Source: Candidatus Latescibacterota bacterium (GTDB taxonomy: Bacteria > Latescibacterota > UBA2968 > SICM01). From it: 64,000 nt of DNA. Both the position numbers and the translations under genes were made by a program. The DNA lies in contig CBDCJO010000002.1 of NCBI GenBank assembly GCA_965217865.1, positions 3,584,001 to 3,648,000 of the forward strand, in the 5' to 3' direction. Of the stretch, positions 54,270 to 64,000 are shown in pieces. The first letter of the stretch is position 1, and each line of letters starts with the position of its first letter. The notes beneath the pieces are model-generated. The model was not told the origin of the DNA. It worked only from the letters and a program-made list of their open reading frames with translations, and did no database searches.

Positions 54270-54518
54270 AATCGTGGTCCGTGGATCGGAAAAGCCGGGG
54301 TCCGTGGATCGTGACTCGGAAAAAACCGAATCCTATCGATAAAAATCCTTTGCCGTTCCTCCAATTATTCGCATCGATTCTTAACGAATCACGAATCACG
54401 AATCACGAATCACGAATCACGAATCACGAATCACGAATCACGAATCACGAATCACGAATCACGAATCACGAATCACGAATCACGAATCACGAATCACGAA
54501 TCACGAATCACGAATCAC
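54270..54518. repeat. Composite heptamer-arm element, type B, (GAATCAC)19
   Basis: GTGGATC arm, type-B core, perfect repeats 54386-54518. Confidence 0.9.
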
Positions 54519-54532
54519 GGGGGGGAAATCGA

Positions 54533-55471: not shown

Positions 55472-56213
55472 TTACCGGATTTTTGCTGCAAAGGAATTGG
55501 GGCCAGGCTCCCTTCCCTCAAGGAAGTAGGGGAACGGGTTTACCCAACGACCGTCTCGTTTTATGCCGTAATGGAGATGCGGCGCCGTCACCCTTCCGGT
55601 TCTGCCCAGGTACCCGATGATCTGACCCCGTTTGACCCGATCCCCACGTCTCACGGAAAATCTCTGAAGGTGCGCGTAGACGGACTCAAGTCCATATTTG
55701 TGATCGATGAGGATATAGTTTCCGAAATTACCGTCTTTTCGACGCACTGAGACTTTTCCGTCCGCTGTGGCAATCACAGGTGTCCCGATTCTGTTGCAGA
55801 TGTCGACCCCGCGGTGCATATGGAGGGCGCCGGTGAAGGGATCCCGGCGGCGGCCGAATCGGGATGAGATCCACGAGTCTGGGCGAGGTACCGGAGATAT
55901 CGATGGGGTATGGTTTCGGATTATCGATATCATTCTCCAGCACATCGCCGATCTCATAGAAACTGCCCTTTAACCGTCTGGCTTCTTGAAGAAGGTGGTC
56001 CATGTCCAGGCGTGCCCGGTGAATCCCCGGGGTGGGGGGACTCTCCGGGATCGGATGCACGACAATAGAGGCCCTGGGTTGGAGGTTGGCCATCTGGAGC
56101 AGCTTATCTTCGCTTGAAACGAGGTACTTCATCTCCTCACGTAAATCGGCCAGTTCTGTAGCCAGATCTTCCAAACGCCCGGACAAAACCCGATTTTCGA
56201 TTTCGAGCATCAC
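55472..56213 (-). CDS. M23 family peptidase; frameshifted, start uncertain
   Basis: ISSRFG.R.DPF, HRGVD, YAHL, TAPHLHY; coiled N-terminal part in ORF 55728..56213. Confidence 0.82.
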
Positions 56214-56507: not shown

Positions 56508-56875
56508 AGCCGGGGATCGTGGTTCGTGGATCGGAAAAGCCGTGGATCGTGGTTCGTGGATCGGGGATCGGGAAAGCCGTGGATCGTGGTTTGTTTGATC
56601 GGGGTTCGGAAAAGCCACTAATCTGAATCCATTCAAAAACCTTTGACTATTCCTCAAAAAATTCGCATCGATTTTTAACGAATCACGAATCACGAATCAC
56701 GAATCACGAATCACGAATCACGAATCACGAATCACGAATCACGAATCACGAATCACGAATCACGAATCACGAATCACGAATCACGAATCACGAATCACGA
56801 ATCACGAATCACGAATCACGAATCACGAATCACGAATCACGAATCACGAATCACGAATCACGAATCACGAATCAC
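56508..56875. repeat. Composite heptamer-arm element, type B, (GAATCAC)28
   Basis: Long GTGGATC/GTGGTTC arm, type-B core, perfect repeats 56680-56875. Confidence 0.9.
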
Positions 56876-56879
56876 GGAC

Positions 56880-57755
56880 TCATGTAGAATCAGGATATTT
56901 CCTTCCTCCCTGTTTTGCCCCGGCAATCTCGTGCCAATCGTATACCTTTCGGATTCTGAGGTTGTATGAAAACATTGCTTCCAACAACTGGTGATCGATC
57001 TTCAGTTCGCGACATCGACCGATAATCGCGCCCAGGTCCTTGGGGAAACATTTCCCACCGAATCCTCTTTCGGTGGTGACATTCAAGTGGCTCGGTCCGA
57101 TTCTTTTGTCAATCGCTACCGCTTCTTTGACATCGTCATAGCTTACCTCTTCTGCGTGGCAGATATCGTAAAAGATGTTCGAGATGGCGACTTTCGCGGC
57201 AAGCATCACATTACACTGGTACTTTACGATCTCTGCAGCAGCACTGCTCATCCGGACGATTCGTGTGGTTGGGAAACAGGTTCGATAGAGGTCGATTACC
57301 TTTTGCCCAATCCAGTCGTTGTCAGCTCCTACGACGGTTCGATCTGCGTTGATGAAATCCTCCAGGTAATTCGCCTCCGTGAGGAACTCGGGATTGAACG
57401 CAAAGGGGACCTCGGGATATGTGTTGGAATATCGACGTGTCGTACCCGGGACGACGGTGGATTTAATGACAACCGGTTTTCCTTGACCCGCGATACGGGG
57501 ACAGATCTCCTCCATCATCCGATCACATATGGACAGATCTATACGGAGTTCTTCTTCGTGAAATGGGGTGGGGAGACAGATGAAGATCAATTCGCTTTGG
57601 TCCAGTACGACATCCAGTTCATCGCTCTGTTTATATTTGTCGTAGATGAGGATCTTGTGTTTGGGCTCTTTGCCCCGCTCTCGATCGCGGTCTGCAAAGC
57701 CGTAGGCCACCGCTCTTCCAACAAAACCGTTCCCGATAATACCGATTGTACTCAT
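56880..57755 (-). CDS. UDP-glucose/GDP-mannose dehydrogenase family (short form, no C-terminal UDP-binding domain)
   Basis: IGNGFVG, IKSTV, NPEFL, GFGGKCFPKD. Confidence 0.85.
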   Translation of the reverse strand: MSTIGIIGNGFVGRAVAYGFADRDRERGKEPKHKILIYDKYKQSDELDVVLDQSELIFICLPTPFHEEELRIDLSICDRMMEEICPRIAGQGKPVVIKSTVVPGTTRRYSNTYPEVPFAFNPEFLTEANYLEDFINADRTVVGADNDWIGQKVIDLYRTCFPTTRIVRMSSAAAEIVKYQCNVMLAAKVAISNIFYDICHAEEVSYDDVKEAVAIDKRIGPSHLNVTTERGFGGKCFPKDLGAIIGRCRELKIDHQLLEAMFSYNLRIRKVYDWHEIAGAKQGGRKYPDST

Positions 57756-57804
57756 ATCCTGGCTATCTCCACGAAAATCACTGAATTTGATTCTCTCCTG
57801 AACC

Positions 57805-59160
57805 TTATAACTTTACAATTTTTCCCTCTCCATCGCTTACGCCCTTAGTGGCGTTTCGTGTATCCACAATGCACCTGGCGTGTGTCACAAGCCAGGAATA
57901 GTCGTGCATGCTGTGATTTGTCACGATAACAACGCAGTCTGAGGAGGCTATTGTTTTCTTATCCAGGGAAACGGACCGGAGCAGTTCGCCATCAACAGTG
58001 ATTTCATCGATATAAGGATCGTGAAAAGAGATGTTTACACCTTTTTTCATCAGAATTTCGATGACTTCCAGGGCCGGAGACTCCCGAATATCAGCCACAT
58101 CCGGTTTGTAGGTGACCCCCAGGACAAGGATTGACGATCCTTTGAGGCTCCGTTCGAACCGGTTGAGCGCATCCCCCACCTTGGACACGACGTAGGCGGG
58201 CATACCCCGTGTCACCTCACTGGCAAGCTCGATAAATCGGGAGTTGAAATTGAGGCCTCGGAGTTTCCAGGCCAGGAAGTGGGGATCAACCGGGATGCAA
58301 TGTCCCCCCAGACCCGGCCCGGGATAAAAGGGCAAGAAGCCGAACGGTTTTGTCGCGGCCGCATCGATCACTTCCCAGACGTTGATCCCAAGCCGATCGC
58401 ACATCAGAGCCACCTCGTTTACCAGCGCGATGTTCACGCTGCGAAACGTATTCTCCAACATCTTCACCATCTCGGCTGCCTGTGAGGATGAGACCGGTAC
58501 AACCTCTGAGATGAACTGCGTGTAGAACAAGACACCCATCTCTGTGCAGGCCGGAGTTATCCCACCCACCACTTTCGGTGTGTTCTTCAGGGTGTGGACC
58601 TGATTTCCGGGGTCCACCCGCTCCGGAGAAAAGGCCAGAAAGAAATCCTCTCCCGCCTTCAGGCCCTTTCCCTCAAGCAAGGGCAATACCAGTTCGTAGG
58701 TGGTGCCGGGATATGTTGTACTCTCCAGGATCACCAGCTTATCCGGATGGAAACGGGCGTGGATTTCTTCGAAGGCATTCATAATGAAGGAGACATCCGG
58801 ATCACGAGTCTTATTCAAGGGGGTGGGTACACAGACAACAATCACGTCCATCTGATCGATGACCGTGAAGTCCATAGTTATCTTGAACTTCCCGACTGCT
58901 TTCATCCCTGCAACCTCGAAATCCGGCACCCCCTGGACATCCGAATTGCCTGCGTCGAGCCGAGATACCTTTTCGGGGGAGGTATCCACGCCCGTCACCT
59001 CAAACCCGGCTTTCCCCAGCTCCACCGCCAGGGGCAGGCCCACGTATCCCAGGCCGACGACGGCTACCTTTGCCGATCGAGTTTGGATCTTTTCACGCAG
59101 TTTCGAGGGATCCGATTCCATAATCTTTTTACCATGTCTTGATAAACTATCTTGATTCAT
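57805..59160 (-). CDS. Nucleotide-sugar dehydrogenase (UDP-GlcNAc/ManNAc 6-dehydrogenase, WbpA/WecC-like)
   Basis: GLGYVGLP, ESTTYPG, SPERVDPGN, GLGGHCIPVDP. Confidence 0.9.
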   Translation of the reverse strand: MNQDSLSRHGKKIMESDPSKLREKIQTRSAKVAVVGLGYVGLPLAVELGKAGFEVTGVDTSPEKVSRLDAGNSDVQGVPDFEVAGMKAVGKFKITMDFTVIDQMDVIVVCVPTPLNKTRDPDVSFIMNAFEEIHARFHPDKLVILESTTYPGTTYELVLPLLEGKGLKAGEDFFLAFSPERVDPGNQVHTLKNTPKVVGGITPACTEMGVLFYTQFISEVVPVSSSQAAEMVKMLENTFRSVNIALVNEVALMCDRLGINVWEVIDAAATKPFGFLPFYPGPGLGGHCIPVDPHFLAWKLRGLNFNSRFIELASEVTRGMPAYVVSKVGDALNRFERSLKGSSILVLGVTYKPDVADIRESPALEVIEILMKKGVNISFHDPYIDEITVDGELLRSVSLDKKTIASSDCVVIVTNHSMHDYSWLVTHARCIVDTRNATKGVSDGEGKIVKL

Positions 59161-59184
59161 ATGAATCGCCCATCGGGTGTGAAC

Positions 59185-59759
59185 TCAAGACTTAGTTGGA
59201 GTGGGATTTTGATTCAACGCGGTGTAACACTCGGGCTTTAAGACACCTACAAAAGGCAGATTCCGATATTGCTGATTGAAGTCGAGACCATAACCGACCA
59301 CAAATTCGTCGGGGATGGTGAACCCGCAGTATTCGATCGGAATCTCGATAGCACGGGTGGCGGGTTTGTCAATGAGAGTACACACCTTAAGACTTTTAGG
59401 CCCACGGGCGTTGAGGCTTCGAAGCAGGTAGTTCAATGTGAGACCCGTGTCTATGATTCCCTCGACGATTAGGACGTGACGTCCCGTGATGCTTATATCC
59501 AGATCTTTGAGGATGCGTACGACACCGGAACTCTGTGTAGACTGGCCATAACTGGAAATGGCCATCGATTCGATTTCGACATGAATTGTTATTTCCCGAG
59601 ACAGGTCCGACAGAAAAAAGAGAGAACCTTTCAGGATACCGATGAGGACGATTGGCCCATCCAGGGCCCCGTAATCCTTAGAGATCTGCCTTCCCAGGGA
59701 TTTCACTTTTTCAAGGATGGCCTGGGGATCGATCAGGATCTTATGAATATCTTTGGTAA
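59185..59759 (-). CDS. hpt: Hypoxanthine phosphoribosyltransferase; start codon missing at the IS junction
   Basis: GILKGS, ISSYG, VLIVEGIIDTGLTL, FVVGYGLD. Confidence 0.88.
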
Positions 59760-60626
59760 TTAGGAAGATATTGGTACCAGATTCACCAGATATGAAGCAA
59801 TAATTGGGAAGAGATCCTCGTCTTCTTGGTTGAATCTGAACTCTGTTTCCTTCAGGTATAAATGGAAATGATGTCGAGGGATTCCTCTGTATTGATATAG
59901 CCAATTTTTAGAAAAACTCCAGAAGCCTTCGATGCCATTGATGTGATGTCGGCCTTTGCCTTTGGGCACCCCTTCTTCTTTTCGAACAACCACGTGGTCA
60001 CCTTTGACTGACAGCCAAGTGTAGGCGTGCCAGTCATCGGTGTAGTATAGACTGCCTGCTTTGGTGTGTGAGGTCACAAGCGGTGTAAGGGTGTTTCGAC
60101 TTCGATCCGGAATGGGAAAGGTGAGGACTTTTCCGTTCCTCTGATAAAGCCCGAAAACCAAGTGTTTTCCGGCTGCTCCCCATCCACGCTTACCCTTATG
60201 ATGACCTCCATACATCGCCTCGTCCAACTCGATCTCACCCCAAAGCACCTGGTCCGTAAAGCTATGATCGTAGATGGCCTGGCGAAACGTGGTATAAATC
60301 CGCTGAGCCGTTTTCAGCGATACGGACAGGTAGTGCCTGGATCGGTAAGAGGGCACTCCCAATACAAACAGATAAAGTAAATGGGCAAGCTCGTCAAATG
60401 AAATTCGAAGCCTTTCAAGATAAGTGCCCGTGAAATCTTTAAACCGATATCCACACCGTGAACACCTGAACCGATCGTCTTTTAATAAGGGCAACCTGCG
60501 CTGATAATCGCAGCTTGGACATCGCCTTTTTCCACCCCAACGGGCTGCACGAAAATAGGCCCTACTTATCTTGCAGTCATTTGCTAACTCTAAGCGCAGC
60601 AAACAGTTGTATTATAATATCTTATA
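59760..60626 (-). mobile_element. IS1595-family insertion sequence (transposase 59760..60602)
   Basis: Zn ribbon CPSC..CSRC, ELDE.MYGG, YTDDW, HINGIEGFWS, YLKETEFRFN; weak end repeats TTAGGAAGATATT / AATATCTTATAA. Confidence 0.88.
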
Positions 60627-60684
60627 AAAAAAGACGATCAAGTTATAAATTTACATCTGTTTTAAAAATATATTGAAAAACCGC

Positions 60685-60713
60685 TTGACATCCAAGGAAC
60701 AAATGATTATATT
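60685..60713 (+). promoter_or_regulatory. Sigma70 promoter for the ncRNA candidate
   Basis: TTGACA-17 bp-TATATT with AT-rich upstream; no + strand ORF follows. Confidence 0.65.
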
Positions 60714-60720
60714 ATCTGAC

Positions 60721-60873
60721 GAACCCCAAGAGGTCCTAAAATTTCTCTGAAACGCGGGTCGGAAGGTTCTGGAACCTCCTCTCAGCTAAGTTGATCAAGG
60801 GTTAAAGCGAATCGAGTAAAGCTGAGGGCAAGACCGAAGGATGCAGAGAATTGATAAAGGTCACTTGGGGTTC
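60721..60873 (+). ncRNA. Unassigned structured RNA candidate (~153 nt)
   Basis: Nested pairings GAACCCCAAG/CTTGGGGTTC, TTCTCTG/CAGAGAA, GGTC/GACC, CTCAGCT/AGCTGAG plus hairpin AGGTTC/GAACCT; starts about 7 nt after the -10. Confidence 0.55.
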
Positions 60874-61843
60874 ACTGTTTTTTATTCCCAACCATCTGAT
60901 TAAGGCCATACTTATTCAGCAGGTTGTGGAAATCCCTCCTGTAAAATATCCGCACGTTTACGTCAGGATAGAGCTTTTTCAACCGACGTAACTTGCGGTT
61001 TTTTTTGGTCACCAGGCTCTGCTTCAGGGTGGTCAATTCGATAAAGGTATCCGAATCGACCAGGTAGAAGTCGGGTGAGAATGCCTCCGTTACTCTCCCT
61101 TCCCCATCCCATTCCAGCGGAAACGTCTTCGGTTCGAATTCCCACTGTATTTGATAAAAATCCAGTATTCTTGCGAACTCCTCTTCGCTCGTGTTTGAAA
61201 AAGCCGGTTTTTTTCCGTTCGGGGAGGGTTGGGTAACTGTTCCCGGAGGTTCGGATCTCTCCGTTTCAGGGAGGTGAACCGTCAGGGACCGCTGACCGAC
61301 GGCATTTACGATGATCTGGACGCAGGCCTGAACATCGAGCCGATCTGTGGAAAGGATGATATCATAGAGAAGGGGGTCATCGATCTTCCGACCATAGAGG
61401 GACTGGATGAAGCGGGCTTGATTCCGTTCCGCTTCCCTTAATGATTCAAGGGCGTGTTCTCGATCGGGTCCCAGCACATCAATCGTCCGTGACATACGGG
61501 TTTCTTCGAAGGCGAAGAATCGGACGTGGAGCGCATCCTGAAAATCCTGGAAGATACACTGGCCACCCCGTCCCAGGAGGATGAAATTCTCCTTCTCCGA
61601 CTTGTCCCTTATGAAAGAGTCGACGAGGTCAAGATAGAGCTTCCGATCGGAGAGGAGCCTTTCCCAGAATGAAGGGGCACGTTCCTGGATCTGGTCCAGA
61701 TCCCCTTCGTCCAGGCCGTATTCCAGGACCAGATGTTCCAGGCCCTTTCGATCGATGAGTACAAACCCAAGCCTTTCAGAAAGGGATTGGGCAACCTCTT
61801 CTCCGTTGCTTCCGAGTTGTCGGGAGATGGTGATGACGGCCAT
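60872..61843 (-). CDS. Cytidylate-kinase-like domain fused to a PD-(D/E)XK-like domain
   Basis: ITISRQLGSNG, LGRGG, YDIILST; C-terminal SEEEFARILDFY..W.FEP...FSPDFYL...FIELTT. Confidence 0.8.
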   Translation of the reverse strand: MAVITISRQLGSNGEEVAQSLSERLGFVLIDRKGLEHLVLEYGLDEGDLDQIQERAPSFWERLLSDRKLYLDLVDSFIRDKSEKENFILLGRGGQCIFQDFQDALHVRFFAFEETRMSRTIDVLGPDREHALESLREAERNQARFIQSLYGRKIDDPLLYDIILSTDRLDVQACVQIIVNAVGQRSLTVHLPETERSEPPGTVTQPSPNGKKPAFSNTSEEEFARILDFYQIQWEFEPKTFPLEWDGEGRVTEAFSPDFYLVDSDTFIELTTLKQSLVTKKNRKLRRLKKLYPDVNVRIFYRRDFHNLLNKYGLNQMVGNKKQ

Positions 61844-61893
61844 TGCAAGCCAGAAGGGAGGAACTTCTCAAGAGGATAAAGAAAAACTGATCT

Positions 61894-61922
61894 AAGATAG
61901 AGGAATGACAAGAGGTTGTCAA
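61894..61922 (-). promoter_or_regulatory. Sigma70 promoter of the cmk-like gene
   Basis: Minus strand TTGACA-17 bp-TATCTT. Confidence 0.6.
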
Positions 61923-62273
61923 GAGAAAAGGGTGGAAACAGAACAGCCCCGGGGTTAAAAAACCCAGGGGCCAACCGTCAAATTTATGGATTCAAGTCGG
62001 GGCGGTGGCCATCCCCTTCCGCCGCTTCCGCAATCTTCCTCTCCCGTTGTTGTGAAGATGGCGGGTATATTCGTCGGATTATAACCACACGCCCCGCAAA
62101 CAGCTTGATCTCCTTACCTCTGTCATCAATTGATGCACAAGGCCCCTGAGGGAGTAACCTTACCCGTTGGGAGGGAGGGTTACGAATAAGGTAAGTCGTC
62201 CTTCAGAGGCCTCATGGTATAAACGATTAACCGGACAGGTGGTTCCTAAATTCTCGAGGCCATTCTCCGAAAT

Positions 62274-62498
62274 TTAGATTGGATTTTCAGCCTCCACAGG
62301 AGCAGGATTTCCGTTCGAATCGCTTTCCATCTTGCCGTGAATGAATCCCTTCACCCCGGAGGTGGCCTGGCTGATACCCTTCTGTATTTGCCGTCGGCTG
62401 TCGGTGGCCAGAAGGACAGCGAGCAAGCCCCCTGCCAGGGCGCCGGCGAACAATCCCGCCCAGAAGAAATCCCTGTGTACCTCTTTCTTCAAGAACAT
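62274..62498 (-). CDS. YtxH-like small membrane protein
   Basis: RBS AAGGAGG; FFWAGLFAGALAGGLLAVLLA then a charged helix. Confidence 0.65.
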   Translation of the reverse strand: MFLKKEVHRDFFWAGLFAGALAGGLLAVLLATDSRRQIQKGISQATSGVKGFIHGKMESDSNGNPAPVEAENPI

Positions 62499-62953
62499 GT
62501 CGGTTACCTCCTTTTTTCTAATGTTTTTCATGACGGGTATGATACGGGAGAAAAATCCAGATCCCCTTCCCGGTCCGGGGAGGTCCTCCATCGCCGCTTC
62601 GGCGACGTGGTCATCTTGATGTCCCCCCGGTTTTCGGAGCTGCGGGAATGCCAGCATCGTCTTATACAACCTTTATTTCGACAAGAGTGAATGGCGTGTC
62701 TCGACCTTCATGCAACAGGGTTGTTTGTTAAATGATAGAACATTATCTCCACTATGGATGTGATGATTATCACTAAAAAGCAGGTTAATTGGTGACTAGC
62801 TGGCCTTTTTGTAAGGGCGAACCGGCGGCTCGCCTACATCTACATCATCTGACCCGGGAGGCCGGAGCCCACCCCCACAATATATTAGACGATTGGGGAA
62901 GAATTCGGTTGCGGATTGCGTATTAAATCAACCCTCGCGGTGGTCGCAAAGGC

Positions 62954-63462
62954 TTACTGAGCCCGAGATGCGACCGCATCTTCCTCCCCCAGGTCTCTAT
63001 CCATGAGGAAGAGCGCGTTTCCATCATCACCGACGAGTTTTAGTTTATGGACGATTTTCCTTGTGATCGCCTCCTCCTCCACCTGCTCGATGACGAACCA
63101 CTGCATGGAAGCGTTTGTGGCGTGGTCGTGTTCTTAACGGCCAGATCGACCAACTTGTTGATCTGGGCGGTTACTTCTTTCTCGTGTTCGTAGGCATTTT
63201 CGAATGCGGCAAGGGGGCTTTCCCACTTCATGGGAGGGGCTTCTATGGACCGGAGCTCGATTTTACCGTCCCTTTCGTTGATGAAATCGTAAATCCTCAT
63301 TGCGTGTTCCAGCTCTTCTCGGGCCTGGATGCGCATCCAGTGCGCAAAACCGTTCAGGTCCCGTGTCTGGAAATAAGCGGACATTCCTAGGTAGAGAAAG
63401 GCCGCGTAGAACTCGGCATTGAGCTGGTCGTTCAAAGCTGGCTGAACTTTATCGCTGACCAT
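62954..63462 (-). CDS. ftnA: Non-heme ferritin; frameshift near 63135
   Basis: LNDQLNAEFYAAFLYL, EELEHAMR, HEKEVT; other frame HDHAT..QWFVIEQVEEE...LFLMDRDL. Confidence 0.88.
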
Positions 63463-63518
63463 GAGAATCTTCCTTATTATTGCTGTATGTGGCCTTTCTC
63501 CGAAATGAAAAGCAAGGT

Positions 63519-63737
63519 CTAGGAGTCTGGAAAGCGTTTGAGGATAAGTCGGGTCTCGATCTGGCGTTGGCCATAGCGCTCGATCTGACGCCGGATATCC
63601 GCAAGGGCGGTTCTTCTGATCCCCAAGTCTTTGAGCTGAACGGCCTGTTGGATGGGGCGGCTGTTTTGCCAGATGGAAAGGCCGCCAGCCAACAGAATCG
63701 CCACTCCTCCCACGATAATCACTTTGTTGAATTTCAT
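63519..63737 (-). CDS. Hypothetical exported protein (possibly a fragment)
   Basis: 72 aa with N-terminal signal/TM segment. Confidence 0.4.
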   Translation of the reverse strand: MKFNKVIIVGGVAILLAGGLSIWQNSRPIQQAVQLKDLGIRRTALADIRRQIERYGQRQIETRLILKRFPDS

Positions 63738-63934
63738 TTCTGACGAAATGGGTCCTCAGGGGCTGGCTCCTATCTTTTGCGGGGGAGAGGGTGGGTAGGA
63801 GTCAGCCCCTGCCAAAGAAATGCTCAAAATTACCAAAAGAGGGACCAAACATCGGTGATCAACGAGCGAGACAATCGGAACCTGAGCGCTTATCCGACGG
63901 CGAGAAATTTATTTTGCTTTATTCCGGTTGAGGG

Positions 63935-64000
63935 TCATACAAGGCGACTCTCTCGAAGCGCCTCCACCGCCATTTTTCGCTCAGTGATGTCCTGGATGGT
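63935..64000 (-). CDS. C-terminal end of a PAS-domain protein (partial)
   Basis: TIQDITERKMAVEALRESRLV*. Confidence 0.6.
   Translation of the reverse strand, partial: TIQDITERKMAVEALRESRLV

Follow-up and report, generated by a model that had tools for sequence, protein, structure and literature searches.

The window, the whole 64,000-nt stretch analysed here, carries towards its end a minus-strand fusion gene (60872..61843) encoding a cytidylate-kinase-like domain (amino acids 3-167, PF13189) joined to a C-terminal T7-endonuclease-I-like (EndoI-like) domain (about 60902-61213, minus strand). On the same strand lies hpt (59185..59757), encoding hypoxanthine phosphoribosyltransferase (TIGR01203 above cut-off), the only copy in the genome at E<=1e-20, and its product has EG where the PRPP-binding motif usually has ED. 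An IS1595-family insertion (59755..60589, minus strand) separates hpt from the promoter of the RNA described below. This insertion is a passenger outside the RNA system, since 14 further near-full copies occur in the genome, it is missing from the relative G098 and one DNA-run contig skips it; the window copy is without the upstream end that the other copies have. It abuts the 5′ end of hpt, where no clear hpt ATG is seen at the junction, and DNA run X6 holds an allele free of the IS. Elsewhere in the window there are two tandem genes of the UDP-glucose/GDP-mannose dehydrogenase family downstream of hpt (56880-59160, minus strand), short intergenic tandem-repeat tracts at 54384-54519 and 56678-56876, with an ITNHESR-type reading, and two possible frameshifts, in an M23 peptidase ORF (55472-56213, minus strand), where an overlapping ORF in another frame resembles its N-terminal part, and in a ferritin gene (63040-63462, minus strand), where the Pfam match ends at residue 111 of 140 (model position 109 of 142).

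Facing the fusion gene on the plus strand is a sigma70-type promoter (-35 TTGACA at 60685-60690, -10 TATATT at 60708-60713, 17-nt spacer, 11/12 consensus), located where a preliminary description of this DNA had placed it. Such a promoter alone is not above chance, with 4 sites in a 2.5-kb scan and 2.9 +/- 1.9 in shuffles, but among 181 near-consensus promoters genome-wide it is the only one with a perfect 10-bp closing stem 4-10 nt downstream, the runner-up having 8 bp. The same TTGACA-17-TATATT spelling also precedes tmRNA and tRNA-Asp. The predicted non-coding RNA that follows is 153 nt long (60721..60873, plus strand), and is delimited by folding, arm pairing, relatives and one contig from an RNA run. 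Its arms (60721-60730 and 60864-60873) pair at 10 of 10 positions, as had been claimed, and its final two nucleotides overlap the TGA stop codon (60872-60874) of the convergent 323-aa gene, the contact with the kinase-nuclease gene that the earlier account had also reported. The segment has an MFE of -54.8 kcal/mol (z -3.97), which none of 200 shuffles equalled, with the reverse strand also folding (z -3.49).

The basal helix is formed by a 5′ strand at 60721..60735, comprising the 10-bp P1, an A.A mismatch (60731/60863) and then GGUC, and a 3′ strand at 60859..60873 reading GGUC-A-CUUGGGGUUC; for the window copy, the predicted MFE fold has the inner four pairs displaced by two bases and lies 3 kcal/mol below the family register. 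Above it sits a body (60743..60850) whose sequence and length are not conserved among relatives, containing P2 (60743-60749/60844-60850), P3 (60757-60760/60832-60835), a side hairpin (60761-60779) and P5 (60781-60787/60820-60826), all on the plus strand. The nested stems and side hairpin of the preliminary description were recovered in a three-way junction (P1, P2, P3 and P5, mean pair probabilities 0.96-0.99), which stood for the window copy but fell as a trait of the family, in which the basal helix alone is conserved. A U-rich tail (60874..60887, plus strand) following the closing helix is a likely intrinsic terminator. From the -35 box and U-tail seen in relatives, the plus strand would be the one transcribed.

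In keeping with the earlier failure to assign the RNA to a known class, the Rfam scan gave no match at the gathering score in the window, and at E<=10 over 60600-61000 returned nothing except a chance piece of mir-611 (E 8.9). Identity with SRP RNA, RNase P RNA or tmRNA was rejected, there being no match and these roles being filled elsewhere in the genome (Rfam/ARAGORN), while hammerhead, box C/D and retron readings made by eye gave motifs that are not conserved across members; no reverse transcriptase occurs among the annotated ORFs of the flanks. Two other strong promoters in the genome, C1 639569 (minus strand) and C2 1029503 (plus strand), precede near-identical GC-rich leaders that are possibly another RNA element. 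Transcription of the RNA has a weak hint from one metatranscriptome, labelled sponge metagenome, from one study and found with this stretch, in which a 199-nt contig matches 60738-60936 exactly at a depth of 4.7, with no other piece longer than 40 nt in 56900-64000. This contig carries neither strand nor ends and extends 63 nt into the convergent gene; in RNA runs X2 and X3 (share 0.04) the insertion sequence only was covered.

Relatives of the RNA escaped a BLAST-type DNA similarity search of 61 related genomes, which gave no RNA homologue. A 17-nt pattern yielded the first one, the single true match among 28: a 189-nt rod in an identical gene order. A 20-nt pattern allowing three mismatches gave real matches among 168 genomes in the source genome (G000) and G098 only. 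G098, from the same class, holds a second copy of 161 nt with its own promoter, and copies of 167 and 79 nt with compensatory changes are found in a less closely related genome of the phylum. Of 574 metagenome loci carrying the fusion gene, the best 80 were tallied by hand, giving 24 full members, 5 cut by contig ends, 1 doubtful and 50 with none; of these 50, 24 extend 1.5 kb or more beyond the gene. Rfam at E<=1 on 24 related loci (12 and 12) found no match on the RNAs and no 6S. A relaxed pattern was noisy, with matches in 41 Latescibacterota genomes out of 168 (3 in the control), and added no member among the 30 loci checked, as full stem and promoter outside an ORF were found in G068 and G098 only, the other 28 lying in open frames of at least 136 codons with at most three outer pairs; matches from 11 genomes fell outside that inspection. 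Weak covariance-model matches in G026 and G070 were rejected as coding repeats or genes, and those in G357 and G320 as not convincing. The family assembled in this way comprises 38 full-length relatives, 24 from metagenome loci and 14 copies in 10 whole genomes, and the RNA is almost certainly a member of a real, uncatalogued bacterial RNA family occurring in three phyla.

Among the 36 members folded, lengths range from 79 to 392 nt, with one further member of 598 nt and one of 130 nt, minimal members of 79-96 nt and a body of about 50 to about 570 nt. What is conserved is a basal helix of about 15 bp of the CCCCAAG-A-GGUC / GGUC-A-CUUGGGG type, made up of 9-13 bp that include two invariant C-G pairs, in most cases a one-by-one mismatch, and then G-C, R-U, Y-G and Y-G. 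The covariation check that the preliminary description had proposed spoke for this helix: across 21 sequences 93.9% of cells are paired, with two-sided change in 8 of 14 pairs (41 cells) and a score of 0.532 versus 0.341 +/- 0.022 for shuffled and at most 0.226 for slid alignments, although two of five measures were not better than shuffles (61/500 and 411/500). The helix was also compared in an 11-sequence set. Of 36 full-length relatives, 32 have a -35-like box at the corresponding distance, many having been found by requiring it, and 34 are followed by a U-rich tail, again partly a search criterion; as members were chosen partly by stem, promoter and tail, the covariation figures and tallies lean in their favour. 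That only a short two-part helix is conserved explains why the family escapes Rfam. The bodies are purine-rich with many GNRA-type hairpins, folding as 13 unbranched rods and 23 branched structures, and a 250-nt subgroup shares a branched structure of its own, covarying at 16 of 49 pairs, that, by eye, may contain an ACUG/CAGU pseudoknot. The members of 385-392 nt (L265:1498-1889 and L237:1508-1892) show repeated units of a GGAA-rich internal loop and a GCAA/GAAA hairpin.

Carrier genomes hold one or two copies, each with its own promoter. A copy may follow the gene in antisense, follow hpt on either strand, lie upstream or be on a separate contig, some unlinked copies adjoining unrelated genes. 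With its placement and orientation towards the gene so changeable, a fixed role in cis is excluded. In G098 the second copy (L124 / L129:5414-5582) has behind it a short, degenerate piece of the nuclease-domain gene's 3′ end and is a duplication in which RNA and promoter were retained. Taken with the conserved promoters, U-tails and covariation of its relatives, these observations favour the stand-alone non-coding RNA that had been proposed.

The protein beside the RNA belongs to a large family, with at least 7999 stand-alone relatives of the EndoI-like domain and 4602 matches to the fusion. The C-terminal 104 amino acids of the fusion protein gave a predicted model with a pLDDT of 89.7, the Phage_endo_I profile matching 10 of 24 members of the protein below the Pfam cut-off and a profile match to T7 endonuclease I being obtained at E 4.4e-5. 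The fold weakly resembles PD-(D/E)XK nucleases and RAP-module proteins, with structural matches to the FASTKD4 RAP module (Z 5.9) and mitoribosomal chains (Z 6.3-8.2); on the predicted model, its fold family is one that includes RNA-acting domains. Foldseek gave no match for the domain at E<=0.001, the best VIA score, Z 8.2, is middling, and the nearest Atlas protein clusters are without annotation. Residues equivalent to E220, D258 and E269, together with K281/K284, are invariant in 27 fusion proteins. The metal-binding acidic residues are kept, but in all 235 parsed of 240 proteins a Thr occupies the position of T7 endonuclease I K67, taken here to be the catalytic Lys, with the two residues after the catalytic Glu reading LT or IT (235/235), such that the full E...PD...E-x-K set of the T7 endonuclease I family is absent from the partner protein. 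A conserved basic helix, KKNRK.RR, has been added, and identity of the domain across lineages is 51-79%.

The EndoI-like gene is nearly always directly before hpt, with the domain found alone, in a form of about 114 aa, or fused to a kinase-like domain, Hpt, GAF plus Hpt, or an unassigned N-terminal domain. GAF-EndoI-Hpt, EndoI-Hpt or N-terminal-domain fusions are seen at L263:576-2006, L204, and L222-L227 and L249, the N-terminal domain having no Pfam match and being PC4-like by eye. Hpt beside the EndoI-like gene often reads LLDR and unlinked Latescibacterota Hpt LLDK, the gene-linked Hpt possibly being a distinct subfamily. A protein search of the genome-contig set gave no match.

The RNA occurs almost only in genomes that carry the EndoI-like gene. 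In Latescibacterota the domain is present in 3 of 168 genomes, and strong covariance-model matches of the real form were confined to the gene-bearing three of 151, the model having four of the five copies in its training set and 17 candidates being scored per genome. In the Desulfobacterota sample the domain was found in 6 of 301 genomes and a strict pattern matched 3, all gene-bearing (3/6 versus 0/295 gene-less; reversed-pattern control, 2 genomes) and all with the RNA on a different contig from the gene; this pattern had been shaped after the RNAs of G175 and G354 were seen, which are two of those three. For Acidobacteria the pattern was fixed beforehand and left unchanged (control, 2 genomes). 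Here the domain is in 17 of 201 genomes and the pattern matched 5, four of them gene-bearing with six RNA copies, five unlinked; this compares 4 of 17 gene-bearing genomes with one doubtful match among 184 gene-less ones, the latter (G633) being an 11-bp stem inside a 616-aa ORF with neither promoter nor U-tail. The nominal Fisher P values of 4.4e-6 (Desulfobacterota) and 1.7e-4 (Acidobacteria) are inflated by kin, G175 and G221 being near twins. The strict pattern found no RNA in 3 of 6 Desulfobacterota and 13 of 17 Acidobacteria gene-bearing genomes (16/23), finding 14 of 28 known members (about 50% sensitivity) in genomes that are incomplete, and the RNA may be optional in gene-bearing genomes. 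The co-occurrence with the nuclease-fold/hpt locus, a check named in advance by the preliminary description, thus extends to unlinked copies and supports its suggestion of a predicted partnership with the adjacent nuclease-fold protein. The only gene seen to follow the RNA is the EndoI-like gene with hpt, though hpt paralogues, or some further gene of the system that has escaped notice, could be what the RNA tracks instead; a functional link between the RNA and the EndoI-like protein system is nonetheless probable.

A divergent 6S RNA was raised by the preliminary description; such an RNA, binding RNA polymerase and merely located near hpt, would account for the strong private promoter, the closed stem, the 150-190 nt length of the nearest relatives, the 13 of 36 members folding as unbranched rods and the lack of any RF00013 match in the source genome or 60 class relatives, albeit with a model that is blind in this class (nothing in 61 genomes); the zapA-rny gap in the genome is also only about 50-70 nt. 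6S RNA occurs in almost all bacteria as a 160-200-nt rod with a central bulge (PMC8414754), binding sigma-RNAP and templating pRNA, with other RNAP-binding RNAs also existing (PMC11077062). The present family, by comparison, went undetected in 148 of 151 Latescibacterota, being seen in 3 of 151, 3 of 301 and 4-5 of 201 genomes in the three samples (search sensitivity being limited), spans 79-598 nt with 8 of 36 members within 160-200 nt, has branched folds in 23 of 36, and is conserved at its base and not in a bubble, the window RNA itself being 153 nt with a multiloop. Moreover the same genome holds a better 6S candidate, a 114-nt rod (G000 C2:5557828-5557971, minus strand; locus L228:332-445) with a closing stem, central bubble, terminal hairpin, TTGACT-17-TATATT promoter and U-tail (z -5.32). 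Although without an Rfam match and given one multiloop by a crude MFE shape test, the bubble appearing in its centroid, this rod is common to genus g4 (nhmmer E 9e-14), with homologues upstream of mutL (L046-L056, L058-L061), and is likely the unannotated 6S RNA of the class. The 6S proposal for the window RNA consequently looks improbable. A cis element or selfish repeat, either an antisense regulator or terminator of the kinase-nuclease-hpt operon or the MITE that had been suggested, is a still slighter prospect: in the window and in many relatives the RNA lies opposite, and overlaps, the 3′ end of the gene; xP[KRE], which is what the 3′ strand of the helix reads in antisense, closes 28 of 120 fusion homologues; both strands fold; and the second G098 copy carries its remnant of the gene end. 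Against this stand the single copy in the source genome (6.43 Mb, 96% complete), the placement of relatives on either strand or beside unrelated genes on other contigs, and promoters and compensatory changes that hold across phyla. As to a target-site duplication, the arm-pairing analysis showed no conspicuous direct repeat in the flanks.

A further reading keeps the partnership but makes the protein an active nuclease, with the RNA as substrate, guide or antitoxin in a type III toxin-antitoxin-like pair or an RNA-maturation enzyme, and a Lys of KKNRK replacing the lost catalytic Lys. The invariant acidic residues and K281/K284, the nuclease-like fold and weak PADLOC PD-(D/E)XK matches for two relatives (E 3e-4 to 0.03) are all compatible with this. 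Against it, every parsed homologue has the Lys-to-Thr change, the RNA does not form a repeat array upstream of the gene and has no linked copy beside many of the genes, no relative was found by protein search in viral contigs, PADLOC gave no match for the fusion protein of the window, and the housekeeping neighbour hpt is fixed. An active enzyme is accordingly considered unlikely, if less so than the 6S proposal.

The reading preferred here is that of an RNA recognised in trans by the EndoI-like protein, a view drawn from its independence of position, its private promoters and additional copies, and a constant helix beneath a variable body, with the tracking of the gene from other contigs and the two copies per genome making action in trans likely. 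Under this scheme sigma70 would transcribe the RNA, with the closing helix and U-tail terminating the transcript, and the EndoI-like protein is predicted to bind the conserved basal helix, whose near two-fold-symmetric GGUC/GGUC tandem G.U site would suit a dimer. The Thr in place of the catalytic Lys, the retained acidic ligands and the added basic helix suggest a protein that binds without cutting. The RNA would serve as its titrant or scaffold, and the fused or coupled modules (Hpt, cytidylate-kinase-like P-loop, GAF) may tie the ribonucleoprotein to nucleotide or purine-salvage status. The full scheme, of predicted binding without cleavage, titration or scaffolding and nucleotide-linked control, is given about an even chance. 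The broader proposal of an undescribed multi-phylum ribonucleoprotein, in which an RNA with a docking helix and a swappable body of up to about 600 nt joins a repurposed endonuclease-I-fold protein and Hpt to link purine salvage or nucleotide sensing to RNA regulation or processing, is favoured by a small margin.

Few multi-phylum trans-acting bacterial RNA classes have a dedicated protein, these being 6S, SRP, tmRNA, RNase P, Y RNA, Csr/Rsm and OLE. The family exposes a blind spot of covariance searches and gives a large, unannotated and very conserved protein family a concrete candidate ligand, with the minimal members of 79-96 nt making a binding test cheap and a likely 6S RNA for a lineage without an annotated one being a by-product. 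No description of the RNA/protein pair was found among the literature listings and abstract openings searched, or by term in the main texts of PMC5737381 and PMC11109978, and novelty of the pair is probable.

Compared with known systems, the RNA is like 6S RNA (RF00013) in being a stand-alone predicted sigma70 transcript closed by a long-range stem, but differs in having no covariance-model match, a patchy distribution, mostly branched folds and a genome in which another candidate fills the 6S role. In type III toxin-antitoxin systems the RNA partner is a repeat array directly upstream of the toxic RNase; the present system shares a nuclease-fold protein with an RNA partner, but has no tandem repeats upstream of the gene, an RNA that is often unlinked and no defence-system or phage context that could be found. 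The protein resembles T7 endonuclease I (PF05367) and RAP-domain proteins in fold and acidic metal ligands, differing from T7 endonuclease I in the Thr for catalytic Lys, in being cellular and hpt-coupled, and in its kinase-like, GAF or Hpt fusions. In mode of action the closest parallels would be Y RNAs and Csr/Rsm decoys. CsrB/RsmZ are decoy RNAs of variable length and copy number that titrate a small regulator, and the proposed mode is similar in invoking a trans RNA, variable in length and copy number, that would titrate a small regulator; the constant element of the present family is instead a helix, GGA is not enriched in most members and no CsrA was found in the five carrier genomes searched. 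Y RNAs with Ro60/Rsr have paired ends that form the conserved protein-binding helix, a variable body, often a location near the partner gene and more than one copy per genome. The present RNA parallels them in its paired ends as a predicted protein-binding helix, its variable body, its frequent proximity to the gene and its extra copies, and is set apart by no TROVE/Ro60 gene in the five RNA-bearing genomes searched (controls positive in 2/14), by the absence of an Rfam match, by a different helix sequence and by a partner of the PD-(D/E)XK fold.
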